DNA from: Psilocybe cubensis
Taxonomy: Eukaryota
Reading direction: 5' to 3'
Assembly (NCBI GenBank): GCA_017499595.2
Contig: CM039010.1
Location: 2,108,001 to 2,172,000, forward strand
DNA length: 64,000 bases
In this document: one piece after another, positions 7,058-53,041 of the stretch
Layout of the letters: every line of letters begins with the position of its first letter
Position numbering within the stretch: the first letter of the stretch is position 1
Notes under the pieces: generated by a model
What the model was told of the DNA's origin: nothing
The model's database searches: none
Seen by the model: the letters and a program-made list of their open reading frames with translations, nothing else
Made by a program: the position numbers and the translations under genes

Positions 7058-8739
7058 ATGAATGCATCATCATTCCCCCCTCCATCACTTGACCATAATC
7101 AGGCCCTTGAAGAGCTTATAGGCGCATTGAAAGCCATACAAGTGGCAAAATACTGCTGGAGTAAGCCGCCCACAGCCCCCGAATGACAATATTCTCTGAA
7201 TACTGACAGTTATTGTATCATCATGATAGTTTCTGCGGCATGCGTCCTATTTTATGACTATAGTCAGTGAATATGCTGTTCGGTAGTAAATACGTTGAAT
7301 TGATCCATATTCTACCTAACCAGTCATAACATTTGGTCAGGAGGCAAGTACAAGTGTACCATTTCACGGAGCCGTATTGAAAATACTGCTTAGGTGTCAT
7401 TTCTCTGGGTAAGCAAATGTCGTATCATGTACCCAACTGGCTATCGCTTACCCTGATGTTGCTTCAAGGGCAGGAATATCAACTTCCTCAAGGCAGTATT
7501 TTTTTTCGTAAGATGATATATTAATGAGGTAGCTAGTACCAGGAATAACATGATTACTACTTTACATAGAACCGGTACTTTCTTAATGGGTCTGCCCCGT
7601 ACGTGTTATAGCGTTACTATACTGCATGCTTATAGCTCACGAGAATTTTTTTTGCAAGATTCGTATTATATGGTAACTACGTTTTATCATTTCAACCGTT
7701 CTCACTAAAGCTTCAAATTTCCAACAGCATATTACTCGGGAAATGTAACCAACAGTGTATGAAAAATTGTCATTGTGGCTGACTCACCCTAATCTGACTC
7801 GTTTTTGACAGCTGTAGGTTGCTTTTTCAGTCTGTACTTTATCACTGTTGGGTATTGATCCACATCCACGAAAATAAATCAAAGTTGTAAGTATCATCAA
7901 TCTGAGCCTTACGCAATATTCCACAAGAGTTAACAATTCAACAGGTGCGCAAGTTATGAAATATCACATAGGGTCAGGGATCATAGGGATTATAATCCCT
8001 CAAGGTATGGCCCACAGAAGGTCGTATATGAAGGCGCTCCCTGTTAATCTATGATACAGTGATTTTACAGATTCGTTTATATGCCTTGTTTAACCATAGC
8101 AAGTGGCTTCTTGCATGTTTGGTACCCCTTTGCATACTATCTGGAACGACAGCAGCCATAATAGGCGGCATGGCCTTCAATCAGGAACAGAGAGGTCAGG
8201 AGCAAGTCCCTGACAATTTTTACAAAAAATGACAGGGTCTATTCGAAGATCATGCGATACAGGCGTTGCCCGTCCCCTGGGGAGGGAAGTTTTGCGTCAC
8301 TGAAACGATTCCATCGTATCTGTACGCCTTTTGGATCCCTGCCATAGTATTTGAAGGAATTTTGTGCACTTTGGCTATTATGAAGGGAATTCAAAACTAC
8401 AAAGCGTACGGTGCTCGGTACACATTCGGGATGCGATTTCACAATATGATGGTCGGTGATTCGGTAGCTTACTTTCTAGCGTGAGTCAAAGTCGACCATA
8501 CCTTGATTACCCCTCAACGTAACAACACGTTCCATCTCCAGAATCGCTGGCGCGTACATTTCATGCATGACAGTTTGGAAGGTTTCGCCGGTAAGAATGT
8601 CTTCTACAACCATTCATGGGATCACACTGATATACTGCTACAGAATCATTTTGACGCCACGATGGGGTTTACAGTGGTGATCTCTGCCACTCTGTGCAAT
8701 CGTTTGGTTTTGAAGATGGTCGACATGGCCAAGAGATAA
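7058..8739 (+). CDS. Multi-exon membrane protein with DUF6533-like N-terminus
   Basis: Spliced reading MNASSFPPPSLDHNQALEELIGALKAIQVAKYCW..SAACVLFYDY..ITFGQE..SFLW..NRY matches the YDY.LTF..E...W signature. Later exons: YLYAFWIPAIVFEGILCTL, GDSVAYFL, LCNRLVLKM. Confidence 0.75.
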
Positions 8740-11700
8740 ATGTGCAATGAGATTTGATCTCTGTTATGTTGACTGTATTACCGACGTCGACAGTCATTGT
8801 AGAAGACCGAATGTGCAAATTTGACAACTTGCACGCGCGCATGTGTGGGTGGGCGGTCGTCTTGGTTGCTACAATCTATTCTTGTCTCTTTTTCTGAGCA
8901 GCCCACAATAGCGAAGCTGCTCGTCTAGAAAATCATAGACGTAAGAAGCAGAGGTAAACAAAACCTCGTTACTCTGACAATAGTCCATTAAGCAATACGT
9001 CAGTTGCGTCAAAGTACCTCCAAATCGCCACTCGATATTCAGCCTTCAGGTGTGCGTTATTTAACGCTGGTAGTGAATTTGGACTGACTCGGGTACGCAC
9101 TGGGAAAGTAACAATGACGTTTTCAGCGGCAGGTAAACGATACATGTTGCCAAATTAGAGTCGCCTCCAAGTGAAATGTGGTGCGCAGAACCACGCCGAA
9201 GGGAGCACAGAGCCACATAGGCAATCGTCCAGAGTCAAAGGGACAGACTGACGGAAAGGTCTCAGAGGAAACTTATAGTTCTGGCTTCCGACATCAGGGA
9301 CTCCAGGATTCGTGAAAAGAGAATAGAGGGAGAAAGTAGGATGGTACCGAGCAGAAACAAGCTCAATCTCAAAATCTCCATCCTCTGCTCTATCACTCTA
9401 GCTCCAGTCTCAAGTTTGAGCTACCCAGATCAGGCGGAGGTGGTGGGATATGTCACAGGCAGAAGTTGGAGGATGAGGGGGAGGGGGAAGAGCCAGAGGA
9501 CGCAAAACAGAGTTCATCTCTGGTAATGCTGAGCAGATGCCCATGCTAAAGACAAAAGTTGGCGTGGAGAACATAAATATGTACTCATGCCAAGCCTCGT
9601 ACTGCGCCACCTGGTCTCATCTCACAATTCGCGATTCATAACCCAGGGCATAAAATTTTGGAACGGTAGGTTCCCTGCGTGCGTTTCAGGTTGATGATTG
9701 AGAGTGTCCGGTCCGGGCCTTCTTAAGACTTCCTAACGGCATAACAGATGTAACGAGGAATGGCCAGTATCAGTGCTGTAGCCATCGTTCGCTAGGATGG
9801 GCACGGCGGCGGCGGTAGTGGTGGTGGTGGTGGTGGTGGTGGGTTGTGGGTGGCTGGTGCTGTTTCGTTCAACTTGAATGCAGTTACCACGGTCATGTGA
9901 GGTTGTTGATAATTGACCGGGAGCAGTACGCCCACTTCTCAGGCTGAATTATCGTGGACTGTGGGTCAATTTGGGGTCAATGTCTTATGCGTCATCTGCT
10001 TACTGGTTATAGCACCCTTAATCTTTGTCTGAGCCTCAAGTCAAACGACACCCTGTGCGCATCCCACTTCAAGGAGATGGGCGCTGCGTAAGAGCGGCCC
10101 TCGTCATCGAGGCGCCGTTTGCAGATTGAACTGCCATCCAACGCGTTCGTCGTAAACTTGTTCAACAAAGTACCTCCTCATGCTTCGGGTGCCGCAGGAC
10201 TCAGTTGTGCGGAGAAGGTATAATCGCGTGTTTGGGCTGCTTGGTGTTGGTCAAGGAGCCTGACTCACGCGGCAAAGCAAAACTTATGTCAATGGCAAGG
10301 GTAATGACAATGCTCACGCGCGATTGACGTTGAGATCTTGGGACGTTGTGTAGATCTATGGCCGACGCCGTCCATTGCCTCAATAGATGTGACACGGCGC
10401 CCACGACGTCCCATAACAAGCACGAACGCCGATTCCAATGCGACGAGCAAGTTCGCGTCGCGTCACACTTCCTTCCCTTGTCGTGGTGTGGTGGGCAGTT
10501 TCGCTTCCGTATTTTCCTCACCCCGGGTCGTAAATTTTGGGGTAGGATATGAGCAAAAGGTAAGATGAACTTGTTGTTTGTCACTCCATTTCTGAGTCGC
10601 CCCTCGCGTCGTACGCGTCGCACTTGTGCGTGGTAGATAATATGATCAGAACGCACCCGGTCTCTCTCTCTGTTCCCGATGCCGTTTATCGCCCAATAGG
10701 TACCTAGAGCGGCGCCCGAACCAAACCCGATCCATTTTGTATTGTTTGGAGTTTCCCCGACTGCGGGTCGCGTTGCGTTGCGTTGCAGAGCAGCTCAGCA
10801 GGAGTAGGGTAGTTGGCTGTGGGTTGTACAAAGAAGGTGAGTGCATGCTACATTCAATACCGCCTATACAGTCACTCATTTTCATATTGATAAGACATAT
10901 GTGCAGTGAGATATGTACGATCCCCCATGTGCTAGCCCTATCCGGTATCCCTCATGCTATCGGTCGTTGTTTTGTCACGCTCAGTCCTTTTCAAAAAGCA
11001 CCCTTGGGATTTCACTTTGCATTGCGACGTCCTGCTTGTGCATCAGTAACTGCAAGTGAGTTCTATCCCGATGTGGACAACACAAAGTGTACCACAGGTT
11101 GTTTCAGGTGCCTTAATCGTTCGCGTCGTGTTGGGGTCGTGTTGGGCCCCGCGTTGGGTGTCATGACCGTGTCCTCTCATGTCCATATCCTATCATGTCT
11201 GTGTTGAGCTCGCGTCGTCTCGTGTCATTTCAAGTATGCGTCAGGTCTACATGTTATGCTCGCGTTGGTGTCGGACACGTTAAGCATTATATTTTGTTGG
11301 ATTTTTGTGTTGGATTTTGTGTGGGTCGGGCATGTGTCACGTTGAAGTTGTGCTGCGTGGCTGAAATAAAAAGTGGGTTTCTGTTCCTTCAGATATCCCA
11401 CATCCACAACGTGCCGGCCCAGAAATACTCAGGCATGGGAATGCGCTGGTGGTTTTGTAGAAGGGATATGTCGCATGTCACACCCGAACCGTCATAGTAT
11501 GCCGCTGCGCACCGCATGGTGCCATTTCCCTACTAGTCCGCGTGCCCCTCTTCGAACACGCACTTCCGAATTGCCAGAGGTTTTTCCGGAAAATCCTCTC
11601 TCTCTGGTTCCCATATCCTCACTTCTCAAAAGAGCTATCAAGAAGGGTAAAACCCCAGGTGACTGTGACACCCTTTCCCCTCCGTGGTCGAGCCAAATTA

Positions 11701-11916
11701 CCTCTAGTATCGGAACCACCCGGAAAAAATGCAGGCTCTAAGCTCTATGTTTTTATCCGGGAAACACACCGATGCCAGCTGATACCAGGGCACCGGGACA
11801 GGCTTTCACGGTGCCTCTTACTACCCAACTCGAAGTTGTCTCGAATCGTGTACATTTCTCTCTCGCACTTCATTGAAGTGTTCTCTGCATGCTTGCTTCT
11901 TTCAAATCGCTTACAC

Positions 11917-14900
11917 GTTCTATAGCGAACTCCCTGTGACCTGGGGACCCGGTCACCCGCTTTGGGTCACCGGGAATGATTAGCTAAGCTTAGTCAGCCG
12001 CGGCTTTTGTTGACTTTCCCTTTCGTTTTCTTACTCGTCCCTTCACCTCCATTCCGCTCGCTGGGACCCGCCCCTCGATCGCTCGCCGCTCGTCACTCCC
12101 AGGTCACCAATGTTTGGCGCGACTTCGACCGCTCAGGTCACAAGAATTTCGACCCCCGACGCCGTCCTTTGCCTCAATAGGTAGCTTGAACGGCCGCCCT
12201 CGACTCGATCCGGATGGGATGGAGTCTCCTCGCTACTGCGCGTTGCGTCGCGTTGCTAGCAGGGCATCGTGTGGGTGAGAAGTAGCTATGTGCAAAAACG
12301 GTGAGTTGAGTGCAACAATTGCGTATTCTTCAACACTACTGAGATCATTTACACCATGGGGGATTCAACGTGGGGGGCAAATTTCCACACGATGCGCGTC
12401 GCGTCGCGTCGCATTGCACTTCTCTCTTGTGAGCAATTCATTTTCTTTTTCTATCTCTGCTACTACTCCTTTGAACGTTGACCCGCTGATTACCCAACCC
12501 CCTCGATAGGTAATCCCAATGTGCACCATGCGCAACATGGCGCCCTCCACGTTCCAAAAAGAGCTTACGCAGATTCCAATGTGATTCATGTCGCGTTGCG
12601 TTGTACTTCTCTCCCGCGCTGTGACAGTGGAGTGTTTGTCGGTACAGACTCGACGTCGAAGTCACTTTGCGTCGCACTTTTCTCCCTTGGAAGGTGAGCG
12701 GAACTCATTCGGTCCTTCTGTTCGTCTTGACATATATTTTCCTATTTGACGCTATTGTTCAGCACGGACAATGCTCTGCGTCCCACAGTGGTGTCTGATT
12801 GAGTTGGATTTAGGCTCGCGCTGGGAGTATACAAGTTTGTGAGTGCTCTTTTCTCTTTTCATTTCTGCCTGGCGGCGCACCAGGAATCCTTTAGCATGCA
12901 GGTTCTCTTCCATGCTTTCTTATTTGCTGACCAACCCCTCTCTGTTTTGTTTTCTGCCAAATGGATCCACGCAAGGCTCAATTGATCAATGCGGATGCGG
13001 AGTTGATGGATTTGACACACAAGGCGCGTATACCAATTTCTCTTATCGCTTCAACTTAACTGGATCCCCTCTTCTTCTCCCCCCTGCGGCGTGTTCCCCT
13101 CATTATCTTTACCCCGCCTGTTGTCACCCCCGCTCTGCCCGCCAGCAAACACCTGCAATGTCACATACAGTGCTGCAGTTAAGCATTAAAACCTAGGAAA
13201 CTGGTGAAGGAGATTTCTGCGGTAGACCGCGCTCTCTAGTCCCTTTATTCCTCCTCTTTATTTTTGAATCTCTGAGCCACATGACACATGGGCAATCCAG
13301 GAATTTTCAGGCATGGAAATACACTGGAATTGCCCATAGTTTCTCACCTGCTTCCTTTCCCACATCATTATACCCCGCCTACCTTGGTCTGCCGCACATA
13401 TTTTTCCGCTTAAATTGAGTTATACCCATGGCTTGGACAACTTTATGCCGCCGACTTTATGCGTGGCTACCATTTTTTACTGCTGTGCAAATCTACCCCG
13501 TGAGAGCGTGCACATTCCATTGTCATTATCTGTTTCTGTGTGATTTGCCCATCGAGTCTTGAGTTGCATATCAGACAGCATAGAATAATGTGGTAGTAAC
13601 TATACATAACACTTCGACTAAGTAGAGTAGCAGTAAATACAACTAAGTCAAGTCAATGATTGAGTATTCAGTTTGAGGCACTGAGAATAGATTGGTTTTC
13701 AAGATAGAGCCAGATGTCTTTTCATGATCAGAATCTTCTGTCAAGTCGATGACATTGGGATCAATCAACAGGGATTGAGTTGTTGAAGATATACCCTTCT
13801 GAATAGTCCGTTATTGATTAACATCAATTTGATATGTTCAAGGCCTACCATCATATGGTCCAAGGCTTTGAGAATTTGAAATACAGCAGTATTGGGTTGC
13901 AAGAGAGGTGCTTAAAATCAAAATTAAAGGATTAAAAGAAGAGTTTAAACGAGAGCAAGCTGCATAGCTGTCGTAGCATTAAGTATTCATTATTACTTTG
14001 TTATTTGAAACTTTACAATTATGATTGTCTGCGGCTACTCTGTCTGTGCATAAATATATGCAAACCATAAAAAATATACTAGAACCAGTCAAGTACATAA
14101 GTAAGAGCATTAAAAATACCAATCAATAGTTATAAGTTATCATGTTTGGCCTTTTTTAGAGGACGACGAGGAGCTACAGCTTTTTTCCGCTTGGTTGGTT
14201 GAGCTTCCACCTCCTTTTGCAAAGATGCAGCCTCCCGCTTTAATTTGATATGTTTTGTAAGGGCTGAAAGTCCCTTTAATTGTTTGTCTTGCTGCCCTAG
14301 AATGTCAAGTTCATCAATGATTGCAAGTGGAGAGACCTTGCGATTATGAGCTTCTGAGTCAATATACTCAGGTATTTCTCGGAATCGCTGCCAGAATTTG
14401 CGGTCCTATGCTTTCCGTAAGTACTTGAATCATATTAATATCAAATTTCCCTACTTTGGATGAAATTCCGCTTTGCCAACTTTTGAGATGCTTGCCCTCG
14501 GAATTGAGTGATCCAAAATGTCGTTCCACCTCACGTAGAGGTGGCTTGATAGCTGTCTGATTACCATCTGCATCATTTACCCCCTCACCAACACTCCAGC
14601 ATGCCCATTGATCATGAAGGTTATATTTATCGAGTGTTTTTGATGGCTTCCAGCAGTCCCATAAATGCTCGGGTTGCTTGATAAGAGCAAATACTTGGTT
14701 CCATGTCACAGATGTCTGTCCAAAGACTGGAGGCCAAAAGAATTGAGGCTGACCTGTATTTATAAATCTGTATTTAGCAAATGTATATATCATAAAAGCA
14801 ATGACTTACCCTGTTCTGTGAAAGCAGACGCACTTGGTAGCACTAAATCAACCTGTGAATGCTTCCGGCGGATGGTACATGTTGGGGTTTTTGGAGATCC

Positions 14901-17900
14901 ATTTGCAAATGCTCGGAACTCTCCATTTTCAGCCATATACACACCAGTGTCATCGTTTTCACTATTATAAAATGGTAGATTTGCCGCAGTTGTAGCACTT
15001 TCAAGTGTTTCATGAGCGACTGTTGTGAGCTGCAGCGCAGGAAGTGGCTTATGCACTGCAGCTGAAAAAAAAGCCAATAAGGATTAAAGATGATGTGAAG
15101 CAGCTTTGTGACGCACATGTTGATGCTGTAGCCATTCTAGATGAGTAGTGAGTCGCTGAATACCCCTTTGCTGGTGATAACACTTGAGTACGCTGCTCAA
15201 CTATCTTCTGAATTCGAGCAACTTCAGCTAATTGAACACTTTGTGATGCAAGTAAAGATCGAGTTTCTTCAAGGGCAAGTTGAAGAAGCTGATTCTGGAT
15301 CCGCTGGAGATCAACCCTACTTCCTGCATTCGCTTTCAACACAGAAAAATCACTTGGAAACTGGTGCTTCATCCAATTCTGGACGTCTTGTTGAGCAAAC
15401 GCTGGAAGCCGGAATAGTGCTGAGTCCGGTACTTCTTGAAAGATGGCAGCACCACACTAAAGCAGAATATTTAATACAATGCTGCATAGTTAATGAAACT
15501 CTTACCTGGAATAGATAGGGACGTAGCTCCATAACCATTGACCAGTAGTTAGCTGCTCCAGACAAATTTTGCCGTCCAACAACATCCGAATATATTGTCT
15601 CAGCCATTGGGCATACAAGATGGAGAAAAATCTCAGGGACATGGACATGACGCCAAATAGGGTCATACACCTCATGAGCTTTATATCCATGTGCACCGAG
15701 TACAGCCTATTATGTACACATCCGGTTAGTAAGTCTTTGAATAATAAAGAGAAAAGTTCACCTCTTTTGGAAGTGCTGGTGCATAGGTGTCATAATATGT
15801 CTCTCCTCGTACCCATCCCATTCGGGACGTTACAGAGGGATCAACACTAACTCAAGATAAGTTATTAAGCATTGAACTAAATATATTTGAGCTTACCCCA
15901 TACGCTCTTGATTATATCCAAGAATATGGCGTGGTAGATATGCTTTTAAATGTGATGTGAATTCAGCAAAAGAAAATGCCTTGACGTAGAGATTGTACAG
16001 GCTTTGCTCATGGTATGGCGTTGCATATGACTTCTTGCCATGTAGAACACGTACTTGTCGCCAGGTTTTATTGATTGACCAGTTAATATCCAATGCTGAT
16101 GTGATATCAATAACATCATGAAGGAAATGATGATAAAAAGCGAATGCTCCCAGTGGGCATTTAACTGGATCAAGGTGGGCAATGAATACACTATACACCG
16201 GATTAACTTTCTGAATAGTGTAGATAATATATCAGATAGGGACAAGTGAATTGAGAGCTTAAATTTACCGTTCTCATCCCTCTGCTAGCACCCGCCTTCT
16301 CTTCTCCTTGACATCCCAGAACACACGGAATGGCAGTCTCTTTATTTGGATGAAGAAAGACATATGGCTGCAGCTCAGCCAGTCGAAGCGCTCGGAAATC
16401 ATCTCCACGGTTTCCTGACGCATTTTGTGCAGTCCAGCTCAAATGACCATTGATAACCGAACGTACTAGAGAACATTGTCAAATTATTACCAAAAGATTC
16501 AAAAAGTTACTCACACTCTCGATGCATAAGAAAGCCTTTTCCAACACTGTTCATCTGCGCTTCTGTGATTCCGGAGAGAAATGTATTGGCAACAATGTCC
16601 GGTGCATCCTCTTCGGGTATGAGGCCTCTGATAATATGGAATTAGTAACTTATAATCAGTGTAGCAGATTAAAAAGAAACAGACTCTCGAGCCCGTCGAA
16701 GAGCTTCATTCATACGACCTTTAAGTGCATCCCAAACATGGACATTGGTTGCTGGGCGCTGCTGGGAAAGACTGGGGTCTTTGGCTTCTTGCTCTTTACG
16801 GATACGAAGTGCACCAAAATATAGTTTCTTAATGTGTGACTGAGAATCAATGTAAGTTTTATGCATGGCCTAATACACTGATATCCGGACTTACCGCGCC
16901 AATAAATGTACCAGGTATGTCAATACCTTTGCGTGTTCGCTTTGGTCTCTCGGCACAGTACCGAATATACAATAGTAAATGGTGGGCGTCAACAATTTCG
17001 TCTTTGATTTGACCTGTCTTCAAGGCATGGCCACAAAAGATCTGAAACGTATTCAAGTTAGATTGGAATATGTATACATAGACTTAGCCAATGACCTTCC
17101 AGTCTTTAATAACCGCATTTTGAGTCTTAACTCCACCCGCTCGTCGATTATTCTCTGCACGTCTCGTCTCCTCAAGCCGGATCCGAGTTTGAAATTTGGT
17201 GTAACTTTCGCCTGGAAAAGGTCCACCTTGCATTTGAGTCTCCAAGTCAAATTCACTGTCGTCTTCAAGGGCTGTGTGGGCTAGGAGCTCGTCGTTGATC
17301 TCAAGAACCTCTTGAAATTCGTCCTCAGGATCACTATCACTATCATCGTCGTACCCAAGAACCTCCTCAGCAGCAGCACCTTCAATACCAAATTCTTGAA
17401 TGAGGATTTCGTCATTATTTCCTCTCAATACGGACATTGATGTGCCAACATATTGCGAGCTAGAAGATGGTAGCTCAGCAACTTGAGCATCAGGAATTGA
17501 TTCCTCCGTGACAACTGGAGGAAACCTGTTAATGCAACCCAATAAAATACTAAGTATAATAGAATATAATTAAAATATGTGCCACATACCAGTAGTCCGT
17601 CAACATTGTTCGAAGATGCTCCAAATTTGCACTCTTAGGTGGTGCTAAATTAGCATCAATACATGCTTCGCGAAGTGGCTCTTTCCGTCGTATAGAAGCT
17701 AGCCTAGACATGTACTGAGCGCGGGATATATTGATAACACCATTGTTGTTGGTCGTGGGGATTGTAATTTCAGCATGTTGAGCTTGCTTAGAAGACTCGG
17801 TGCGAGATATGTGCAGTGCCGAGTTGTCATTGGCAACTAACAACCTTGAATTCAAAGCCTGAGTATCGTTTATTGGAGACTGCATTGGTTTACTCAGAGA

Positions 17901-18298
17901 TTTTTGAACGAGAGTGGGGGAAACTGTATATTCATAAGACATTTTATAGAGTACATTCTTTTATTATCTTGTACTAGTTGAGTTCAACGATGGGCCACTG
18001 GAGCGATGTAGAATGGACACTCACCAAAGGAAAATAACCGGTCATTTCACGTTGAATGGCACTCATGATTGACTCATGAGTTTGGCCAGTGTTGTGCGCA
18101 TATTGGCCAGTGCCACTGAAGGCCACAGAAATAAATCAATGGCGGCACATACCCACAGTGTCCGGTGCAGGTTGCGATGCTCACTGCATGCCTCAGTGAA
18201 AGTCACCCAGCTCTGTGACCCAGGGCCAAATTTGTGCGGCAGGTCACAAAATGTCTGTGACCTGCGCCCAAGGAATGCCACGGGGGTCTCCTTGTTCT
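11917..18298 (-). mobile_element. Crypton copy 1
   Basis: Bounded by ttacac|GTTCT|atagcg and ctcctt|GTTCT|atagcg. Confidence 0.9.
14130..17942 (-). CDS. Crypton tyrosine recombinase (Ndc10/CryptonF-like YR plus GCR1_C-like domain), copy 1, catalytic His changed to Tyr
   Basis: About 13 exons spliced by hand: ASGNRGDDFR (R), GEEKAG (K), HLDPVKCPLGAFAFY, KAYLPRH (HxxR altered), SRMGWVRGETYYDTY (W and Y; exon absent from the ORF track), QWACWSVG..IKPPLREVERHFG..W (GCR1_C-like), basic tail KRKK..RRPLKKAK, stop at 14130-14132. Confidence 0.85.
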
Positions 18299-21200
18299 AT
18301 AGCGAACTCCCTGTGACCTGGGGACCCGGTCACCCGCTTTGGGTCACCGGGAATGATTAGCTAAGCTTAGTCAGCCGCGGCTTTTGTTGACTTTCCCTTT
18401 CGTTTTCTTACTCGTCCCTTCACCTCCATTCCGCTCGCTGGGACCCGCCCCTCGATCGCTCGCCGCTCGTCACTCCCAGGTCACCAATGTTTGGCGCGAC
18501 TTCGACCGCTCAGGTCACAAGAATTTCGACCCCCGACGCCGTCCTTTGCCTCAATAGGTAGCTTGAACGGCCGCCCTCGACTCGATCCGGATGGGATGGA
18601 GTCTCCTCGCTACTGCGCGTTGCGTCGCGTTGCTAGCAGGGCATCGTGTGGGTGAGAAGTAGCTATGTGCAAAAACGGTGAGTTGAGTGCAACAATTGCG
18701 TATTCTTCAACACTACTGAGATCATTTACACCATGGGGGATTCAACGTGGGGGGCAAATTTCCACACGATGCGCGTCGCGTCGCGTCGCATTGCACTTCT
18801 CTCTTGTGAGCAATTCATTTTCTTTTTCTATCTCTGCTACTACTCCTTTGAACGTTGACCCGCTGATTACCCAACCCCCTCGATAGGTAATCCCAATGTG
18901 CACCATGCGCAACATGGCGCCCTCCACGTTCCAAAAAGAGCTTACGCAGATTCCAATGTGATTCATGTCGCGTTGCGTTGTACTTCTCTCCCGCGCTGTG
19001 ACAGTGGAGTGTTTGTCGGTACAGACTCGACGTCGAAGTCACTTTGCGTCGCACTTTTCTCCCTTGGAAGGTGAGCGGAACTCATTCGGTCCTTCTGTTC
19101 GTCTTGACATATATTTTCCTATTTGACGCTATTGTTCAGCACGGACAATGCTCTGCGTCCCACAGTGGTGTCTGATTGAGTTGGATTTAGGCTCGCGCTG
19201 GGAGTATACAAGTTTGTGAGTGCTCTTTTCTCTTTTCATTTCTGCCTGGCGGCGCACCAGGAATCCTTTAGCATGCAGGTTCTCTTCCATGCTTTCTTAT
19301 TTGCTGACCAACCCCTCTCTGTTTTGTTTTCTGCCAAATGGATCCACGCAAGGCTCAATTGATCAATGCGGATGCGGAGTTGATGGATTTGACACACAAG
19401 GCGCGTATACCAATTTCTCTTATCGCTTCAACTTAACTGGATCCCCTCTTCTTCTCCCCCCTGCGGCGTGTTCCCCTCATTATCTTTACTCCGCCTGTTG
19501 TCACCCCCGCTCTGCCCGCCAGCAAACACCTGCAATGTCACATACAGTGCTGCAGTTAAGCATTAAAACCTAGGAAACTGGTGAAGGAGATTTCTGCGGT
19601 AGACCGCGCTCTCTAGTCCCTTTATTCCTCCTCTTTATTTTTGAATCTCTGAGCCACATGACACATGGGCAATCCAGGAATTTTCAGGCATGGAAATACA
19701 CTGGAATTGCCCATAGTTTCTCACCTGCTTCCTTTCCCACATCATTATACCCCGCCTACCTTGGTCTGCCGCACATATTTTTCCGCTTAAATTGAGTTAT
19801 ACCCATGGCTTGGACAACTTTATGCCGCCGACTTTATGCGTGGCTACCATTTTTTACTGCTGTGCAAATCTACCCCGTGAGAGCGTGCACATTCCATTGT
19901 CATTATCTGTTTCTGTGTGATTTGCCCATCGAGTCTTGAGTTGCATATCAGACAGCATAGAATAATGTGGTAGTAACTATACATAACACTTCGACTAAGT
20001 AGAGTAGCAGTAAATACAACTAAGTCAAGTCAATGATTGAGTATTCAGTTTGAGGCACTGAGAATAGATTGGTTTTCAAGATAGAGCCAGATGTCTTTTC
20101 ATGATCAGAATCTTCTGTCAAGTCGATGACATTGGGATCAATCAACAGGGATTGAGTTGTTGAAGATATACCCTTCTGAATAGTCCGTTATTGATTAACA
20201 TCAATTTGATATGTTCAAGGCCTACCATCATATGGTCCAAGGCTTTGAGAATTTGAAATACAGCAGTATTGGGTTGCAAGAGAGGTGCTTAAAATCAAAA
20301 TTAAAGGATTAAAAGAAGAGTTTAAACGAGAGCAAGCTGCATAGCTGTCGTAGCATTAAGTATTCATTATTACTTTGTTATTTGAAACTTTACAATTATG
20401 ATTGTCTGCGGCTACTCTGTCTGTGCATAAATATATGCAAACCATAAAAAATATACTAGAACCAGTCAAGTACATAAGTAAGAGCATTAAAAATACCAAT
20501 CAATAGTTATAAGTTATCATGTTTGGCCTTTTTTAGAGGACGACGAGGAGCTACAGCTTTTTTCCGCTTGGTTGGTTGAGCTTCCACCTCCTTTTGCAAA
20601 GATGCAGCCTCCCGCTTTAATTTGATATGTTTTGTAAGGGCTGAAAGTCCCTTTAATTGTTTGTCTTGCTGCCCTAGAATGTCAAGTTCATCAATGATTG
20701 CAAGTGGAGAGACCTTGCGATTATGAGCTTCTGAGTCAATATACTCAGGTATTTCTCGGAATCGCTGCCAGAATTTGCGGTCCTATGCTTTCCGTAAGTA
20801 CTTGAATCATATTAATATCAAATTTCCCTACTTTGGATGAAATTCCGCTTCGCCAACTTTTGAGATGCTTGCCCTCGGAATTGAGTGATCCAAAATGTCG
20901 TTCCACCTCACGTAGAGGTGGCTTGATAGCTGTCTGATTACCATCTGCATCATTTACCCCCTCACCAACACTCCAGCATGCCCATTGATCATGAAGGTTA
21001 TATTTATCGAGTGTTTTTGATGGCTTCCAGCAGTCCCATAAATGCTCGGGTTGCTTGATAAGAGCAAATACTTGGTTCCATGTCACAGATGTCTGTCCAA
21101 AGACTGGAGGCCAAAAGAATTGAGGCTGACCTGTATTTATAAATCTGTATTTAGCAAATGTATATATCATAAAAGCAATGACTTACCCTGTTCTGTGAAA

Positions 21201-24200
21201 GCAGACGCACTTGGTAGCACTAAATCAACCTGTGAATGCTTCCGGCGGATGGTACATGTTGGGGTTTTTGGAGATCCATTTGCAAATGCTCGGAACTCTC
21301 CATTTTCAGCCATATACACACCAGTGTCATCGTTTTCACTATTATAAAATGGTAGATTTGCCGCAGTTGTAGCACTTTCAAGTGTTTCATGAGCGACTGT
21401 TGTGAGCTGCAGCGCAGGAAGTGGCTTATGCACTGCAGCTGAAAAAAAAAGCCAATAAGGATTAAAGATGATGTGAAGCAGCTTTGTGACGCACATGTTG
21501 ATGCTGTAGCCATTCTAGATGAGTAGTGAGTCGCTGAATACCCCTTTGCTGGTGATAACACTTGAGTACGCTGCTCAACTATCTTCTGAATTTGAGCAAC
21601 TTCAGCTAATTGAACACTTTGTGATGCAAGTAAAGATCAAGTTTCTTCAAGGGCAAGTTGAAGAAGCTGATTCTGGATCCGCTGGAGATCAACCCTACTT
21701 CCTGCATTCGCTTTCAACACAGAAAAATCACTTGGAAACTGGTGCTTCATCCAATTCTGGACGTCTTGTTGAGCAAACGCTGGAAGCCGGAATAGTGCTG
21801 AGTCCGGTACTTCTTGAAAGATGGCAGCACCACACTAAAGCAGAATATTTAATACAATGCTGCATAGTTAATGAAACTCTTACCTGGAATAGATAGGGAC
21901 GTAGCTCCATAACCATTGACCAGTAGTTAGCTGCTCCAGACAAATTTTGCCGTCCAACAACATCCGAATATATTGTCTCAGCCATTGGGCATACAAGATG
22001 GAGAAAAATCTCAGGGACATGGACATGACGCCAAATAGGGTCATACACCTCATGAGCTTTATATCCATGTGCACCGAGTACAGCCTATTATGTACACATC
22101 CGGTTAGTAAGTCTTTGAATAATAAAGAGAAAAGTTCACCTCTTTTGGAAGTGCTGGTGCATAGGTGTCATAATATGTCTCTCCTCGTACCCATCCCATT
22201 CGGGACGTTACAGAGGGATCAACACTAACTCAAGATAAGTTATTAAGCATTGAACTAAATATATTTGAGCTTACCCCATACGCTCTTGATTATATCCAAG
22301 AATATGGCGTGGTAGATGTGCTTTTAAATGTGATGTGAATTCAGCAAAAGAAAATGCCTTGACGTAGAGATTGTACAGGCTTTGCTCATGGTATGGCGTT
22401 GCATATGACTTCTTGCCATGTAGAACACGTACTTGTCGCCAGGTTTTATTGATTGACCAGTTAATATCCAATGCTGATGTGATATCAATAACATCATGAA
22501 GGAAATGATGATAAAAAGCGAATGCTCCCAGTGGGCATTTAACTGGATCAAGGTGGGCAATGAATACACTATACACCGGATTAACTTTCTGAATAGTGTA
22601 GATAATATATCAGATAGGGACAAGTGAATTGAGAGCTTAAATTTACCGTTCTCATCCCTCTGCTAGCACCCGCCTTCTCTTCTCCTTGACATCCCAGAAC
22701 ACACGGAATGGCAGTCTCTTTATTTGGATGAAGAAAGACATATGGCTGCAGCTCAGCCAGTCGAAGCGCTCGGAAATCATCTCCACGGTTTCCTGACGCA
22801 TTTTGTGCAGTCCAGCTCAAATGACCATTGATAACCGAACGTACTAGAGAACATTGTCAAATTATTACCAAAAGATTCAAAAAGTTACTCACACTCTCGA
22901 TGCATAAGAAAGCCTTTTCCAACACTGTTCATCTGCGCTTCTGTGATTCCGGAGAGAAATGTATTGGCAACAATGTCCGGTGCATCCTCTTCGGGTATGA
23001 GGCCTCTGATAATATGGAATTAGTAACTTATAATCAGTGTAGCAGATTAAAAAGAAACAGACTCTCGAGCCCGTCGAAGAGCTTCATTCATACGACCTTT
23101 AAGTGCATCCCAAACATGGACATTGGTTGCTGGGCGCTGCTGGGAAAGACTGGGGTCTTTGGCTTCTTGCTCTTTACGGATACGAAGTGCACCAAAATAT
23201 AGTTTCTTAATGTGTGACTGAGAATCAATGTAAGTTTTATGCATGGCCTAATACACTGATATCCGGACTTACCGCGCCAATAAATGTACCAGGTATGTCA
23301 ATACCTTTGCGTGTTCGCTTTGGTCTCTCGGCACAGTACCGAATATACAATAGTAAATGGTGGGCGTCAACAATTTCGTCTTTGATTTGACCTGTCTTCA
23401 AGGCATGGCCACAAAAGATCTGAAACGTATTCAAGTTAGATTGGAATATGTATACATAGACTTAGCCAATGACCTTCCAGTCTTTAATAACCGCATTTTG
23501 AGTCTTAACTCCACCCGCTCGTCGATTATTCTCTGCACGTCTCGTCTCCTCAAGCCGGATCCGAGTTTGAAATTTGGTGTAACTTTCGCCTGGAAAAGGT
23601 CCACCTTGCATTTGAGTCTCCAAGTCAAATTCACTGTCGTCTTCAAGGGCTGTGTGGGCTAGGAGCTCGTCGTTGATCTCAAGAACCTCTTGAAATTCGT
23701 CCTCAGGATCACTATCACTATCATCGTCGTACCCAAGAACCTCCTCAGCAGCAGCACCTTCAATACCAAATTCTTGAATGAGGATTTCGTCATTATTTCC
23801 TCTCAATACGGACATTGATGTGCCAACATATTGCGAGCTAGAAGATGGTAGCTCAGCAACTTGAGCATCAGGAATTGATTCCTCCGTGACAACTGGAGGA
23901 AACCTGTTAATGCAACCCAATAAAATACTAAGTATAATAGAATATAATTAAAATATGTGCCACATACCAGTAGTCCGTCAACATTGTTCGAAGATGCTCC
24001 AAATTTGCACTCTTAGGTGGTGCTAAATTAGCATCAATACATGCTTCGCGAAGTGGCTCTTTCCGTCGTATAGAAGCTAGCCTAGACATGTACTGAGCGC
24101 GGGATATATTGATAACACCATTGTTGTTGGTCGTGGGGATTGTAATTTCAGCATGTTGAGCTTGCTTAGAAGACTCGGTGCGAGATATGTGCAGTGCCGA

Positions 24201-24676
24201 GTTGTCATTGGCAACTAACAACCTTGAATTCAAAGCCTGAGTATCGTTTATTGGAGACTGCATTGGTTTACTCAGAGATTTTTGAACGAGAGTGGGGGAA
24301 ACTGTATATTCATAAGACATTTTATAGAGTACATTCTTTTATTATCTTGTACTAGTTGAGTTCAACGATGGGCCACTGGAGCGATGTAGAATGGACACTC
24401 ACCAAAGGAAAATAACCGGTCATTTCACGTTGAATGGCACTCATGATTGACTCATGAGTTTGGCCAGTGTTGTGCGCATATTGGCCAGTGCCACTGAAGG
24501 CCACAGAAATAAATCAATGGCGGCACATACCCACAGTGTCCGGTGCAGGTTGCGATGCTCACTGCATGCCTCAGTGAAAGTCACCCAGCTCTGTGACCCA
24601 GGGCCAAATTTGTGCGGCAGGTCACAAAATGTCTGTGACCTGCGCCCAAGGAATGCCACGGGGGTCTCCTTGTTCT
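18294..24676 (-). mobile_element. Crypton copy 2
   Basis: Both ends are the internal junction ctcctt|GTTCT|atagcg. Confidence 0.9.
20507..24320 (-). pseudogene. Crypton tyrosine recombinase copy 2 with premature stop
   Basis: Same exons as copies 1 and 3 with intact HLPRH. G>A at 21639 turns CGA into TGA (ETRSLL to ET*), removing the GCR1_C-like C-terminus. Confidence 0.8.
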
Positions 24677-27600
24677 ATAGCGAACTCCCTGTGACCTGGG
24701 GACCCGGTCACCCGCTTTGGGTCACCGGGAATGATTAGCTAAGCTTAGTCAGCCGCGGCTTTTGTTGACTTTCCCTTTCGTTTTCTTACTCGTCCCTTCA
24801 CCTCCATTCCGCTCGCTGGGACCCGCCCCTCGATCGCTCGCCGCTCGTCACTCCCAGGTCACCAATGTTTGGCGCGACTTCGACCGCTCAGGTCACAAGA
24901 ATTTCGACCCCCGACGCCGTCCTTTGCCTCAATAGGTAGCTTGAACGGCCGCCCTCGACTCGATCCGGATGGGATGGAGTCTCCTCGCTACTGCGCGTTG
25001 CGTCGCGTTGCTAGCAGGGCATCGTGTGGGTGAGAAGTAGCTATGTGCAAAAACGGTGAGTTGAGTGCAACAATTGCGTATTCTTCAACACTACTGAGAT
25101 CATTTACACCATGGGGGATTCAACGTGGGGGGCAAATTTCCACACGATGCGCGTCGCGTCGCGTCGCATTGCACTTCTCTCTTGTGAGCAATTCATTTTC
25201 TTTTTCTATCTCTGCTACTACTCCTTTGAACGTTGACCCGCTGATTACCCAACCCCCTCGATAGGTAATCCCAATGTGCACCATGCGCAACATGGCGCCC
25301 TCCACGTTCCAAAAAGAGCTTACGCAGATTCCAATGTGATTCATGTCGCGTTGCGTTGTACTTCTCTCCCGCGCTGTGACAGTGGAGTGTTTGTCGGTAC
25401 AGACTCGACGTCGAAGTCACTTTGCGTCGCACTTTTCTCCCTTGGAAGGTGAGCGGAACTCATTCGGTCCTTCTGTTCGTCTTGACATATATTTTCCTAT
25501 TTGACGCTATTGTTCAGCACGGACAATGCTCTGCGTCCCACAGTGGCGTCTGATTGAGTTGGATTTAGGCTCGCGCTGGGAGTATACAAGTTTGTGAGTG
25601 CTCTTTTCTCTTTTCATTTCTGCCTGGCGGCGCACCAGGAATCCTTTAGCATGCAGGTTCTCTTCCATGCTTTCTTATTTGCTGACCAACCCCTCTCTGT
25701 TTTGTTTTCTGCCAAATGGATCCACGCAAGGCTCAATTGATCAATGCGGATGCGGAGTTGATGGATTTGACACACAAGGCGCGTATACCAATTTCTCTTA
25801 TCGCTTCAACTTAACTGGATCCCCTCTTCTTCTCCCCCCTGCGGCGTGTTCCCCTCATTATCTTTACCCCGCCTGTTGTCACCCCCGCTCTGCCCGCCAG
25901 CAAACACCTGCAATGTCACATACAGTGCTGCAGTTAAGCATTAAAACCTAGGAAACTGGTGAAGGAGATTTCTGCGGTAGACCGCGCTCTCTAGTCCCTT
26001 TATTCCTCCTCTTTATTTTTGAATCTCTGAGCCACATGACACATGGGCAATCCAGGAATTTTCAGGCATGGAAATACACTGGAATTGCCCATAGTTTCTC
26101 ACCTGCTTCCTTTCCCACATCATTATACCCCGCCTACCTTGGTCTGCCGCACATATTTTTCCGCTTAAATTGAGTTATACCCATGGCTTGGACAACTTTA
26201 TGCCGCCGACTTTATGCGTGGCTACCATTTTTTACTGCTGTGCAAATCTACCCCGTGAGAGCGTGCACATTCCATTGTCATTATCTGTTTCTGTGTGATT
26301 TGCCCATCGAGTCTTGAGTTGCATATCAGACAGCATAGAATAATGTGGTAGTAACTATACATAACACTTCGACTAAGTAGAGTAGCAGTAAATACAACTA
26401 AGTCAAGTCAATGATTGAGTATTCAGTTTGAGGCACTGAGAATAGATTGGTTTTCAAGATAGAGCCAGATGTCTTTTCATGATCAGAATCTTCTGTCAAG
26501 TCGATGACATTGGGATCAATCAACAGGGATTGAGTTGTTGAAGATATACCCTTCTGAATAGTCCGTTATTGATTAACATCAATTTGATATGTTCAAGGCC
26601 TACCATCATATGGTCCAAGGCTTTGAGAATTTGAAATACAGCAGTATTGGGTTGCAAGAGAGGTGCTTAAAATCAAAATTAAAGGATTAAAAGAAGAGTT
26701 TAAACGAGAGCAAGCTGCATAGCTGTCGTAGCATTAAGTATTCATTATTACTTTGTTATTTGAAACTTTACAATTATGATTGTCTGCGGCTACTCTGTCT
26801 GTGCATAAATATATGCAAACCATAAAAAATATACTAGAACCAGTCAAGTACATAAGTAAGAGCATTAAAAATACCAATCAATAGTTATAAGTTATCATGT
26901 TTGGCCTTTTTTAGAGGACGACGAGGAGCTACAGCTTTTTTCCGCTTGGTTGGTTGAGCTTCCACCTCCTTTTGCAAAGATGCAGCCTCCCGCTTTAATT
27001 TGATATGTTTTGTAAGGGCTGAAAGTCCCTTTAATTGTTTGTCTTGCTGCCCTAGAATGTCAAGTTCATCAATGATTGCAAGTGGAGAGACCTTGCGATT
27101 ATGAGCTTCTGAGTCAATATACTCAGGTATTTCTCGGAATCGCTGCCAGAATTTGCGGTCCTATGCTTTCCGTAAGTACTTGAATCATATTAATATCAAA
27201 TTTCCCTACTTTGGATGAAATTCCGCTTCGCCAACTTTTGAGATGCTTGCCCTCGGAATTGAGTGATCCAAAATGTCGTTCCACCTCACGTAGAGGTGGC
27301 TTGATAGCTGTCTGATTACCATCTGCATCATTTACCCCCTCACCAACACTCCAGCATGCCCATTGATCATGAAGGTTATATTTATCGAGTGTTTTTGATG
27401 GCTTCCAGCAGTCCCATAAATGCTCGGGTTGCTTGATAAGAGCAAATACTTGGTTCCATGTCACAGATGTCTGTCCAAAGACTGGAGGCCAAAAGAATTG
27501 AGGCTGACCTGTATTTATAAATCTGTATTTAGCAAATGTATATATCATAAAAGCAATGACTTACCCTGTTCTGTGAAAGCAGACGCACTTGGTAGCACTA

Positions 27601-30600
27601 AATCAACCTGTGAATGCTTCCGGCGGATGGTACATGTTGGGGTTTTTGGAGATCCATTTGCAAATGCTCGGAACTCTCCATTTTCAGCCATATACACACC
27701 AGTGTCATCGTTTTCACTATTATAAAATGGTAGATTTGCCGCAGTTGTAGCACTTTCAAGTGTTTCATGAGCGACTGTTGTGAGCTGCAGCGCAGGAAGT
27801 GGCTTATGCACTGCAGCTGAAAAAAAAAGCCAATAAGGATTAAAGATGATGTGAAGCAGCTTTGTGACGCACATGTTGATGCTGTAGCCATTCTAGATGA
27901 GTAGTGAGTCGCTGAATACCCCTTTGCTGGTGATAACACTTGAGTACGCTGCTCAACTATCTTCTGAATTCGAGCAACTTCAGCTAATTGAACACTTTGT
28001 GATGCAAGTAAAGATCGAGTTTCTTCAAGGGCAAGTTGAAGAAGCTGATTCTGGATCCGCTGGAGATCAACCCTACTTCCTGCATTCGCTTTCAACACAG
28101 AAAAATCACTTGGAAACTGGTGCTTCATCCAATTCTGGACGTCTTGTTGAGCAAACGCTGGAAGCCGGAATAGTGCTGAGTCCGGTACTTCTTGAAAGAT
28201 GGCAGCACCACACTAAAGCAGAATATTTAATACAATGCTGCATAGTTAATGAAACTCTTACCTGGAATAGATAGGGACGTAGCTCCATAACCATTGACCA
28301 GTAGTTAGCTGCTCCAGACAAATTTTGCCGTCCAACAACATCCGAATATATTGTCTCAGCCATTGGGCATACAAGATGGAGAAAAATCTCAGGGACATGG
28401 ACATGACGCCAAATAGGGTCATACACCTCATGAGCTTTATATCCATGTGCACCGAGTACAGCCTATTATGTACACATCCGGTTAGTAAGTCTTTGAATAA
28501 TAAAGAGAAAAGTTCACCTCTTTTGGAAGTGCTGGTGCATAGGTGTCATAATATGTCTCTCCTCGTACCCATCCCATTCGGGACGTTACAGAGGGATCAA
28601 CACTAACTCAAGATAAGTTATTAAGCATTGAACTAAATATATTTGAGCTTACCCCATACGCTCTTGATTATATCCAAGAATATGGCGTGGTAGATGTGCT
28701 TTTAAATGTGATGTGAATTCAGCAAAAGAAAATGCCTTGACGTAGAGATTGTACAGGCTTTGCTCATGGTATGGCGTTGCATATGACTTCTTGCCATGTA
28801 GAACACGTACTTGTCGCCAGGTTTTATTGATTGACCAGTTAATATCCAATGCTGATGTGATATCAATAACATCATGAAGGAAATGATGATAAAAAGCGAA
28901 TGCTCCCAGTGGGCATTTAACTGGATCAAGGTGGGCAATGAATACACTATACACCGGATTAACTTTCTGAATAGTGTAGATAATATATCAGATAGGGACA
29001 AGTGAATTGAGAGCTTAAATTTACCGTTCTCATCCCTCTGCTAGCACCCGCCTTCTCTTCTCCTTGACATCCCAGAACACACGGAATGGCAGTCTCTTTA
29101 TTTGGATGAAGAAAGACATATGGCTGCAGCTCAGCCAGTCGAAGCGCTCGGAAATCATCTCCACGGTTTCCTGACGCATTTTGTGCAGTCCAGCTCAAAT
29201 GACCATTGATAACCGAACGTACTAGAGAACATTGTCAAATTATTACCAAAAGATTCAAAAAGTTACTCACACTCTCGATGCATAAGAAAGCCTTTTCCAA
29301 CACTGTTCATCTGCGCTTCTGTGATTCCGGAGAGAAATGTATTGGCAACAATGTCCGGTGCATCCTCTTCGGGTATGAGGCCTCTGATAATATGGAATTA
29401 GTAACTTATAATCAGTGTAGCAGATTAAAAAGAAACAGACTCTCGAGCCCGTCGAAGAGCTTCATTCATACGACCTTTAAGTGCATCCCAAACATGGACA
29501 TTGGTTGCTGGGCGCTGCTGGGAAAGACTGGGGTCTTTGGCTTCTTGCTCTTTACGGATACGAAGTGCACCAAAATATAGTTTCTTAATGTGTGACTGAG
29601 AATCAATGTAAGTTTTATGCATGGCCTAATACACTGATATCCGGACTTACCGCGCCAATAAATGTACCAGGTATGTCAATACCTTTGCGTGTTCGCTTTG
29701 GTCTCTCGGCACAGTACCGAATATACAATAGTAAATGGTGGGCGTCAACAATTTCGTCTTTGATTTGACCTGTCTTCAAGGCATGGCCACAAAAGATCTG
29801 AAACGTATTCAAGTTAGATTGGAATATGTATACATAGACTTAGCCAATGACCTTCCAGTCTTTAATAACCGCATTTTGAGTCTTAACTCCACCCGCTCGT
29901 CGATTATTCTCTGCACGTCTCGTCTCCTCAAGCCGGATCCGAGTTTGAAATTTGGTGTAACTTTCGCCTGGAAAAGGTCCACCTTGCATTTGAGTCTCCA
30001 AGTCAAATTCACTGTCGTCTTCAAGGGCTGTGTGGGCTAGGAGCTCGTCGTTGATCTCAAGAACCTCTTGAAATTCGTCCTCAGGATCACTATCACTATC
30101 ATCGTCGTACCCAAGAACCTCCTCAGCAGCAGCACCTTCAATACCAAATTCTTGAATGAGGATTTCGTCATTATTTCCTCTCAATACGGACATTGATGTG
30201 CCAACATATTGCGAGCTAGAAGATGGTAGCTCAGCAACTTGAGCATCAGGAATTGATTCCTCCGTGACAACTGGAGGAAACCTGTTAATGCAACCCAATA
30301 AAATACTAAGTATAATAGAATATAATTAAAATATGTGCCACATACCAGTAGTCCGTCAACATTGTTCGAAGATGCTCCAAATTTGCACTCTTAGGTGGTG
30401 CTAAATTAGCATCAATACATGCTTCGCGAAGTGGCTCTTTCCGTCGTATAGAAGCTAGCCTAGACATGTACTGAGCGCGGGATATATTGATAACACCATT
30501 GTTGTTGGTCGTGGGGATTGTAATTTCAGCATGTTGAGCTTGCTTAGAAGACTCAGTGCGAGATATGTGCAGTGCCGAGTTGTCATTGGCAACTAACAAC

Positions 30601-31054
30601 CTTGAATTCAAAGCCTGAGTATCGTTTATTGGAGACTGCATTGGTTTACTCAGAGATTTTTGAACGAGAGTGGGGGAAACTGTATATTCATAAGACATTT
30701 TATAGAGTACATTCTTTTATTATCTTGTACTAGTTGAGTTCAACGATGGGCCACTGGAGCGATGTAGAATGGACACTCACCAAAGGAAAATAACCGGTCA
30801 TTTCACGTTGAATGGCACTCATGATTGACTCATGAGTTTGGCCAGTGTTGTGCGCATATTGGCCAGTGCCACTGAAGGCCACAGAAATAAATCAATGGCG
30901 GCACATACCCACAGTGTCCGGTGCAGGTTGCGATGCTCACTGCATGCCTCAGTGAAAGTCACCCAGCTCTGTGACCCAGGGCCAAATTTGTGCGGCAGGT
31001 CACAAAATGTCTGTGACCTGCGCCCAAGGAATGCCACGGGGGTCTCCTTGTTCT
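24672..31054 (-). mobile_element. Crypton copy 3
   Basis: Right boundary ctcctt|GTTCT|ctcaac returns to unique sequence. Confidence 0.9.
26885..30698 (-). CDS. Crypton tyrosine recombinase copy 3, apparently intact
   Basis: NRGDD, EEKAG, KAHLPRH, MGW, YYDTY and PPLREVERHFG..WR all present; no stop seen in the predicted exons. Confidence 0.85.
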
Positions 31055-48227: not shown

Positions 48228-48534
48228 ATAAGATATATTTCGCTCGGATTAAATTGCACTTTTTCGGAATGTGCTAAATTTGAGTAGAAGTGAAAGGAGG
48301 AGAAGGTGACAGAATATCCGAGTTATCTGATATTCCGTGGGTGCGTAGGGCTTTGGCGGGTGGTCAGGAAAGACCAAGTGAAGGTCACGAGAAATGACCG
48401 GATTCGAAGTGAGACACGCAAAGCGCGAGTCGTGAGGAAACGAAAGCGAGGAGAAAGGTTTAGCCGCCAAAGGCCTGAGCGCTTGGATCGAACCACGTGG
48501 AAATCGCAAACGAGAACCAACGGTGGCAGTACCA
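48228..48534 (-). repeat. Split direct repeat B2 (307 bp)
   Basis: Appears identical to 48873-49179. Confidence 0.9.
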
Positions 48535-53040: not shown

Positions 53041-53041
53041 A

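Follow-up and report, generated by a model that had tools for sequence, protein, structure and literature searches.

Cryptons carry a tyrosine recombinase (YR) as their only gene, lack terminal inverted and long repeats and are bounded by terminal direct repeats of 4-6 bp, according to the sections of the survey used here (Kojima & Jurka 2011, PMC3212892). CryptonF-1_cRei, an active Crypton of Chlamydomonas reinhardtii, has the 5-bp end CACCG, targets CAYCG and prefers gene-proximal intergenic DNA and 5' untranslated regions (UTRs) for insertion; the same excerpt states that Cryptons drive rearrangements between their own ends and stray target sites (PMC9977147). Here we analyzed a stretch of 64,000 nucleotides from Psilocybe cubensis (GenBank assembly GCA_017499595.2, contig CM039010.1, positions 2,108,001 to 2,172,000 of the forward strand), which is termed the window and contains three tandem copies of a Crypton-type element. 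Each copy holds a GC-rich arm that resembles DNA upstream of the array. We show that the arm and this upstream DNA both belong to a dispersed repeat family of low copy number, of which they are old and strongly diverged members. The plan of the family comprises modules of 110-180 bp, each opened by a conserved 25-mer, and a 31-mer island that follows at a distance of about 1.1 kb. On this evidence, the locus represents a well-delimited Crypton that has a crossover site, predicted binding-site clusters and an intact gene, was triplicated recently and is located beside old related repeat debris. Homology between a Crypton and its flank was not described in the literature that we searched, a non-exhaustive set of texts.

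The array and its parts are located as follows.

11917..31054, no strand assigned: head-to-tail array of three Crypton-type units of 6377, 6378 and 6378 bp, starting at 11917, 18294 and 24672
11917..11921, plus strand: GTTCT, which opens every unit (11917, 18294, 24672) and recurs at 31050-31054 as the start of the right flank (junction listing)
11917..12150, plus strand: left terminal region with five GGTCAC/GTGACC sites at 11936, 11951, 11965, 12102 and 12136 (motif map)
18215..18293, plus strand: right terminal region with three such sites at 18215, 18242 and 18257, adjoining the left terminal region at the unit junctions
11963..13550, plus strand: non-coding, GC-rich arm (47-59%), followed by an AT-rich stretch (34-42% GC) up to the stop codon of the gene at 14133
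14133..17942, minus strand: tyrosine-recombinase gene, copy 1, 1053 amino acids (aa) and about 10 exons, located by tblastn of the P. cubensis protein P0001; copies 2 and 3 at +6377 and +12755 bp

The three units were 99.9% identical in a blastn self-comparison of the window and differed by seven substitutions and one indel, an A8/A9 length difference, in the three-copy alignment. The latter is located at 15064 inside an intron pyrimidine tract, outside the coding sequence. Each copy has 2-3 private changes in a star-like pattern, and C>T or G>A changes at CpG account for five of the seven substitutions, as expected if repeated copies are cytosine-methylated. GTTCT is presumed to be the 5-bp crossover or terminal direct repeat. 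Since it stands at all unit starts and at the start of the right flank, the empty site should read …cgcttacac-GTTCT-ctcaacattt…; the predicted empty-site sequence of the locus is …CGCTTACAC-GTTCT-CTCAACATT… (11916 joined to 31055). Interruption of a host gene by the array was rejected, as no convincing open reading frame (ORF) spans the in-silico empty site.

Neither the blastn self-comparison nor the repeat search revealed long terminal repeats in the 6378-bp unit. Each unit starts with a GC-rich part (approximately 11917-13400, 47-59%), continues with an AT-rich part (approximately 13400-14130, 34-42%) and ends with a body of 41% GC. The motif GGTCAC/GTGACC occurs eight times per unit, always close to an end (no more than about 80 bp away on the right and about 225 bp on the left), and was absent from the other ~6 kb of the unit in the motif map. 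Wherever two units meet, these sites combine into a single cluster of about 370 bp that surrounds GTTCT. Because all three hallmarks of PMC3212892, as given in the sections used, are present, we assign the 6378-bp unit to the Crypton-type DNA transposons, and there to the fungal kind with a YR and, in this case putatively, a GCR1_C-like region.

A preliminary description of this locus had claimed that the arm is a diverged homologue of the host DNA just upstream of the insertion, with three collinear blocks. The segments concerned are listed below.

10362..10499, plus strand: flank module M1, head at 10362-10386 and B-type body at 10392-10499
10675..10852, plus strand: flank module M2, head with a 1-nt deletion and A-type body
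11398..11449, plus strand: flank island holding the 31-mer at 11419-11449
12155..12317, plus strand: arm module M3, 25-mer head at 12156-12180 and A-type body (nhmmer E value 1.9e-45)
12487..12643, plus strand: arm module M4, weak head ending in CGATAG and B-type body at 12535-12643
13277..13327, plus strand: arm island holding the 31-mer at 13297-13327

All three blocks were recovered. The 25-mers at 10362-10386 and 12156-12180 agree at 24 of 25 positions; elsewhere in the window this sequence is found only in array copies 2 and 3, giving four matches in total compared to none expected from 100 shuffles. The proposed similarity of 10678-10843 to 12158-12306 appeared as an alignment of 10675-10852 with 12155-12317 (120 of 158 positions identical). 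Its local score was 47.5 compared to 16.9 ± 2.1 (maximum 24) in 100 dinucleotide shuffles, and the same alignment test against five other GC-matched regions of the window gave scores of 14.5-20. The 31-mers reported near 11419 and 13297 share 25 of 31 nt. With 24 nt added on either side, this island scored 20.5, which was reached by none of 200 shuffles; an unbiased blastn search gave an E value of only 0.028. A fourth block, absent from the preliminary description, links 10392-10499 with 12535-12643 (76 of 103 positions identical, blastn E value 5e-7).

Each region thus contains two modules of roughly 140-180 nt, with a head ending in CAATAG or CGATAG and a GCGTYGCGTYGC run. M2 pairs most closely with M3 (A type) and M1 with M4 (B type), and both pairs are more alike than the neighbours M1-M2 and M3-M4, which indicates that the split into A and B types is older than the split between flank and arm. 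Collinearity was not borne out: the order is B-A in the flank and A-B in the arm, and the flank heads at 10362 and 10678 both map to a single arm head. Given the swapped module order and the alignable share of only ~320 nt of the ~1630-nt (1.6-kb) GC-rich arm, the match is not simply collinear. No alignment was obtained in the terminal 239 bp, in the interval between modules and island, beyond the 31-mer or in the right flank, where 97-120 of 200 shuffles reached the score. The homologous part of the flank lies 0.5-1.5 kb upstream of the array; flank and arm members have the same strand, a similar GC content and a similar head-to-island spacing (1057 and 1141 bp, respectively). Profiles of the modules and the island detected no other copy at E < 1 in the ~45 kb of the window outside the array (nhmmer). 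What stood of the claimed relationship is a real homology of an arm internal to a Crypton-type element, but one of ~320 nt rather than of a simple collinear homologue, and the upstream stretch is not unique host DNA but itself DNA of a repeat family.

Two further observations concern these segments. At 13273-13345, the arm 31-mer is framed by ATGGGCAAT…ATTGCCCAT, which together with CCAG/CTGG ends forms, by eye, a stem of 13 bp that contains one bulge; since this frame is missing around the flank 31-mer, the stem is not conserved. A minisatellite with the 10-bp unit AAGTGCATGC occupies 34-145 at the start of the window, and the similar GAGTGCATGC that ends M2 (10839-10848) is probably a coincidence.

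The arm contains no convincing ORF, plain or spliced, and searches of arm and flank gave only Cys/Arg/Ser-rich frames. It matched neither recombinase-family proteins nor the family hidden Markov model (HMM) nor the XPG-I extension found in relatives (see below). An Rfam search over 8000-18400 gave no match at E ≤ 1, and a tRNA search found none. The consensus fold of the two A modules was weak (-17.7 kcal/mol over 189 columns) and did not amount to a convincing conserved RNA fold. A reading of the 25-mer head and the 31-mer as small RNA, spliced leader or short interspersed nuclear element (SINE) was rejected on the grounds that no Rfam match, tRNA or SINE head was found. To our knowledge, trans-splicing is not known in fungi, to which the host belongs.

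The homology could be taken as a sign of guided targeting, in which the arm sequence or an RNA made from it, for example the 25-mer head or the 31-mer, steers the recombinase to homologous DNA. The adjacency itself, the stronger conservation of the head (24/25 compared to about 75% for the bodies) and the fact that the homology breaks exactly at the head are in line with this idea. However, the homologous pieces are not at the crossover but 470-1550 bp away, a plain 5-bp GTTCT forms the junction as in ordinary Cryptons, and the right flank has no homology, so that we regard guided targeting as hardly credible. It is very unlikely, too, that the 25-mer head and perhaps the 31-mer serve as a secondary cis-site for module exchange or for drawing the recombinase complex, by which elements home beside relatives or their debris. 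If true, this would be a homology-assisted landing pad, a mechanism not described for Cryptons in the texts searched. If insertions of this clade regularly adjoined arm-like DNA, target choice of Cryptons would extend beyond the 5-bp crossover; Cryptons might also build and exchange non-coding modules, with a bearing on the spread of YR transposons and on engineering. At present, the similarity between arm and flank looks more like nearby repeat debris than like a new mode of target choice.

To follow the segments beyond the window, contigs and reads of four public runs were placed on 8500-18300 at a likeness of at least 90%. Among them, run X1 comes from a study other than the likely source of the window. 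Further runs, X8 and X11-X13, contained next to none of the sequence words and do not enter the results. Runs X9 and X10 had no reads over 8500-9800 or 12424-13077, which shows that both lack the locus of the window. Nevertheless, their reads piled on the flank modules in another order, with joints 10623>10364 and 10859>10395 and skips of 112 and 121 nt. At the flank island, 63 and 48 reads left at 11448, and at the arm 31-mer 48 reads entered and 45-49 left, with unrelated sequence on both sides. In X1, three further contigs matched 11401-11449 with 2-4 differences, another contained the arm 31-mer, flanked to the left and right by 255 nt of other sequence, and a contig of depth 95 strung pieces of M1 and a head in a different order. 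Judged from the X1 contigs, there may be about 4-6 further island loci. Relatives elsewhere are at least 90% alike to flank or arm, whereas flank and arm are only about 75-81% alike, which argues against either one having been copied from the other. The preliminary description had considered an abundant dispersed repeat; the family is dispersed, but its copy number is low. Of the origins suggested there, a landing pad holding older relatives and a captured host repeat are both compatible with a dispersed family.

With a dispersed family, the adjacency of arm and flank might be due to chance, old dispersed repeats being present in both and repeats and transposons gathering in long intergenic "safe havens". 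The array is located about 1 kb upstream of a gene, inside an intergenic space of ~4.2 kb, which is long for a fungus, and the window contains other repeats (see below). On the other hand, the family is of low copy number, and a random insertion at most 1.5 kb from a member would occur in about 1 of 1000 cases by a rough estimate for a genome of ~45 Mb. None of the presumed ~4-6 further island loci lies in the other 45 kb of the window, and the two members agree in strand, order and spacing. We therefore consider mere chance improbable.

The same runs revealed where the element begins and how many copies of its parts exist. In X1, the contig depth was 41.1 for the flank (one contig), 85.6 for the arm (11967-13326) and 98 for the body (13298-18298), from which it follows that arm and body have equal copy number, at 2-2.4 times that of the flank. 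Arm plus body was found nowhere else in the X1 genome, which has the arm-bearing element at this locus only. A 1069-nt X1 contig with a depth of 259.5, corresponding to about six copies, matched only 11919-11962 and continued with a different AT-rich sequence. Position 11941 was covered by 218 reads in X9 and 200 in X10; their letters before 11917 agreed at only 0.46-0.47, indicating many different flanks at the copies of the terminus. Beyond 11957/11962, at least two alternative continuations were seen, represented by 43 and 97 reads in X9. Position 11917 is thus the true terminus, and a 45-bp left terminus is common to an element family at many sites. As a consequence, the arm lies between terminus and gene and is internal to the element. 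Metagenome scans for the left terminus and for a degenerate 31-mer yielded no stretch in either case. About one genome-copy of X9 and X10 reads, 90-95% alike, continued the terminal region to the head; in X9, 18-31 reads covered 11997-12167, with C>T at 12167 in 22 of 22. In relatives as well, at least the head may therefore be part of the left arm.

These data also bear on an origin in situ, in which arm and flank once formed one stretch of host DNA, derived from an ancient local duplication, and the arm was enclosed by a recombinase-mediated rearrangement before the triplication. The restriction of the arm-bearing element to this locus in X1 agrees with such an origin, as does the GC content of the arm, which fits the flank and not the 41% GC body; rearrangements of Crypton ends with stray target sites are on record (PMC9977147, in the part used here). 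Against it, flank and arm are each closer to relatives elsewhere, the arm lies inside the true terminus common to other copies, and in the X9/X10 relatives the terminal region is apparently followed by the head. Moreover, no simple one-step rearrangement would appear to yield the order terminus-arm-gene, and an origin in situ seems decidedly improbable to us.

On present evidence, the locus is most simply read as related repeat debris beside a site-specific element. As to the source of this debris, we tentatively favour, at somewhat less than an even chance, that the flank derives from an older, now gene-less relative of the same clade and that the present element lies beside it through re-use of sites or gathering near relatives. 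The older relative would have left its debris upstream, and the present element would have landed beside it in the way such elements may re-use sites and accumulate where relatives sit. Its own tyrosine recombinase would have inserted the element in circular form at the intergenic GTTCT site, and head-to-tail multiplication would then have given three copies. Gathering near relatives finds support in the tandem array, which itself shows integration beside an existing copy, and the occurrence of the head after the terminal region in X9 and X10 reads speaks for the head being part of the element clade.

Several results weigh against this derivation. The flank has no GGTCAC cluster in the motif map and does not align with the 239-bp terminal region, as 120 of 200 shuffles reached the score. 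No relic of a recombinase was detected in either flank: outside the array, tblastn with 43 relatives gave nothing at E < 0.1, and on the six-frame translation of 7000-11916 the family HMM did no better than on shuffles (-6.4 compared to a shuffle mean of -3.4). Flank and arm have their modules in opposite order. The approximately six-copy relatives with the same terminus lack the 25-mer at a likeness of at least 90%, the X1 depth being flat there, so that the modules are no general feature of all relatives. Any physical linkage of the X9 and X10 head reads to a terminus is putative, and an arm left without a body requires at least one extra deletion. Two candidate remnants in the flank were discarded. 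Putative recombinase and XPG-I exons at 10422-10508 (tblastn E values 0.7-5) are Arg-rich chance matches that failed the family-HMM test, and a terminus-like GTTCTAT..CGA at 11060, which agrees with 10 of the first 12 nt, is marginal (estimated at ~0.04) and out of order and was taken as chance.

A flank without terminus, GGTCAC cluster and YR relic would be easier to understand if a host repeat unrelated to Cryptons, for example from gene upstream or untranslated regions, had been taken in as cargo and the element landed by preference beside another member. Both regions are T-rich on the plus strand and show, by eye, well-formed plus-strand splice signals (for example AAG|GTGAGT) and introns of 58-71 nt. 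The array is located about 1 kb upstream of a transporter gene of the MFS type, whose start is likely near 32100 as judged by eye, about 1 kb from the insertion point, and of which one exon was recognized:

32668..33030, plus strand: exon of an MFS-type transporter (host gene), Pfam MFS_1 E value 1.5e-5, below the gathering score on the single exon

The preference of the Chlamydomonas Crypton for gene-proximal intergenic DNA and 5' UTRs, as given in the excerpt, points in the same direction (PMC9977147). Nevertheless, pieces at least 90% identical occur in X9 and X10, which lack the locus, and this is more typical of mobile DNA than of host regulatory sequence. In relatives, too, the head apparently comes after the terminal region, and cargo gained by aberrant excision would be expected outside the terminus rather than between terminus and gene. 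Capture of a host repeat is therefore possible, if rather doubtful.

The gene of the array was assigned by its product. The well-aligned exons are 99-100% identical to P0001, the 1053-aa P. cubensis protein that NCBI names hypothetical (tblastn). NDC10_II (E value 8.2e-11) was the sole Pfam family on this protein; a GCR1_C match was not obtained at E ≤ 0.01, and the relative P0004, 77% identical in the core, showed a weak GCR1_C match (E value 4.3e-4, 21 bits), which is under the 23-bit Pfam cut-off. Of 22 aligned Agaricales relatives, 21-22 share the residues R424, K456, H556, R559, W581 and Y591; from the spacing of these residues compared to Cre, we take them to be the catalytic ones. A search of PDB sequences with the recombinase family profile gave nothing at E ≤ 0.01. 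An AlphaFold model of the recombinase (mean predicted local distance difference test score 64.7) matched Ndc10 structures (6gyp, 4aco) with an E value of ~1e-6, followed by Cre and Flp at ~1e-2. Judged by these residues, the gene encodes a tyrosine recombinase with an R-H-R-Y set. Pfam searches of the unit ORFs revealed no reverse transcriptase, RNase H or DDE transposase family, and a YR retrotransposon of the DIRS/Ngaro type was rejected for the missing reverse transcriptase and RNase H. A Starship was likewise rejected, as there is no DUF3435 match and the 6.4-kb unit has one gene; Starships, giant YR elements of Pezizomycotina, have a DUF3435-type "captain" recombinase at one end and tens to hundreds of kb of cargo genes. 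A well-delimited mushroom Crypton should be useful for transposon annotation, the Agaricales "Ndc10 domain" proteins being labelled hypothetical at present.

The conserved box-II His (H556) is present in 21 of 22 relatives. In copy 1, position 15940 encodes Tyr instead (KAYLPRH), whereas copies 2 and 3 (22318, 28696) and the database protein have His (KAHLPRH); the recombinase of copy 1 may therefore be catalytically impaired. Several of the Agaricales relatives P0004, P0007, P0008, P0009, P0028 and P0033 are annotated with a fused C-terminal XPG-I nuclease (Pfam XPG_I E value 8e-19 for P0004), of which tblastn with the relatives found no trace in the element of the window. We know of no description of a YR-nuclease fusion in Crypton-like elements.

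Upstream of the array, an apparent multi-exon membrane-protein gene, recognized by eye and without Pfam support, ends near 8738. Further repeats are present in the window downstream of the array. Inverted repeats of ~482 bp at 42457-42938 and 44234-44715, 93% complementary and 1.3 kb apart, may be the ends of a foldback element or an element with terminal inverted repeats. Exact 302-bp direct repeats at 48573-48874 and 54472-54773 and 310-bp repeats at 48228-48537 and 48873-49182 bracket a block (48228-54773 overall) with a very strong purine skew (GC skew up to +0.36) and long minus-strand ORFs of 631 and 678 aa without a Pfam family. Finally, same-strand segments 19.4 kb apart (36332-36936 and 55746-56341, 84%; 37054-37296 and 56498-56738, 75%) coincide in part with long minus-strand ORFs; a duplicated gene is the probable explanation.

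Compared to known systems, the array gene resembles the kinetochore protein Ndc10/Cbf2, which has a domesticated Crypton-like recombinase fold, in its top Pfam family (NDC10_II) and its top structural match. Unlike Ndc10/Cbf2, this transposon gene keeps the catalytic residues and lies in a unit that is repeated and has conserved termini; it is not the host kinetochore gene. In bacteria, integrative elements accrete in tandem at one attachment site through a site-specific recombinase that integrates a new circle into, or next to, a relative already in place. By analogy, the head-to-tail array and the neighbours with homologous segments are reminiscent of such accretion, but bacterial elements use defined attachment sites, whereas the putative older neighbour in P. 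cubensis lacks recombinase gene and terminus.

Among Cryptons, the element shares with CryptonF-1_cRei a 5-bp terminal motif that matches the target (GTTCT in our case) and a gene-proximal intergenic insertion, and as the recombinase of the Chlamydomonas element acts on stray sites, local rearrangements are plausible here by likeness. Activity was observed directly for CryptonF-1_cRei and can only be presumed for the P. cubensis element; tandem arrays and similarity between element and flank are not mentioned in the portion of the article used (PMC9977147). Like CryptonF of fungi and oomycetes, as portrayed in the sections used, the unit of a few kb has a single multi-exon YR gene with an intact catalytic set, a short direct repeat at both ends (GTTCT), and neither terminal inverted nor long direct repeats (PMC3212892). 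The likeness to CryptonF may extend to a C-terminal region resembling GCR1_C, for which a weak match below the Pfam cut-off was obtained in the relative P0004 only. Unlike most fungal CryptonF elements, for which a 6-bp repeat is reported, the terminal repeat is 5 bp long, the element is present as three head-to-tail copies, and it carries a 1.6-kb GC-rich non-coding arm with repeat modules in common with the neighbouring DNA.

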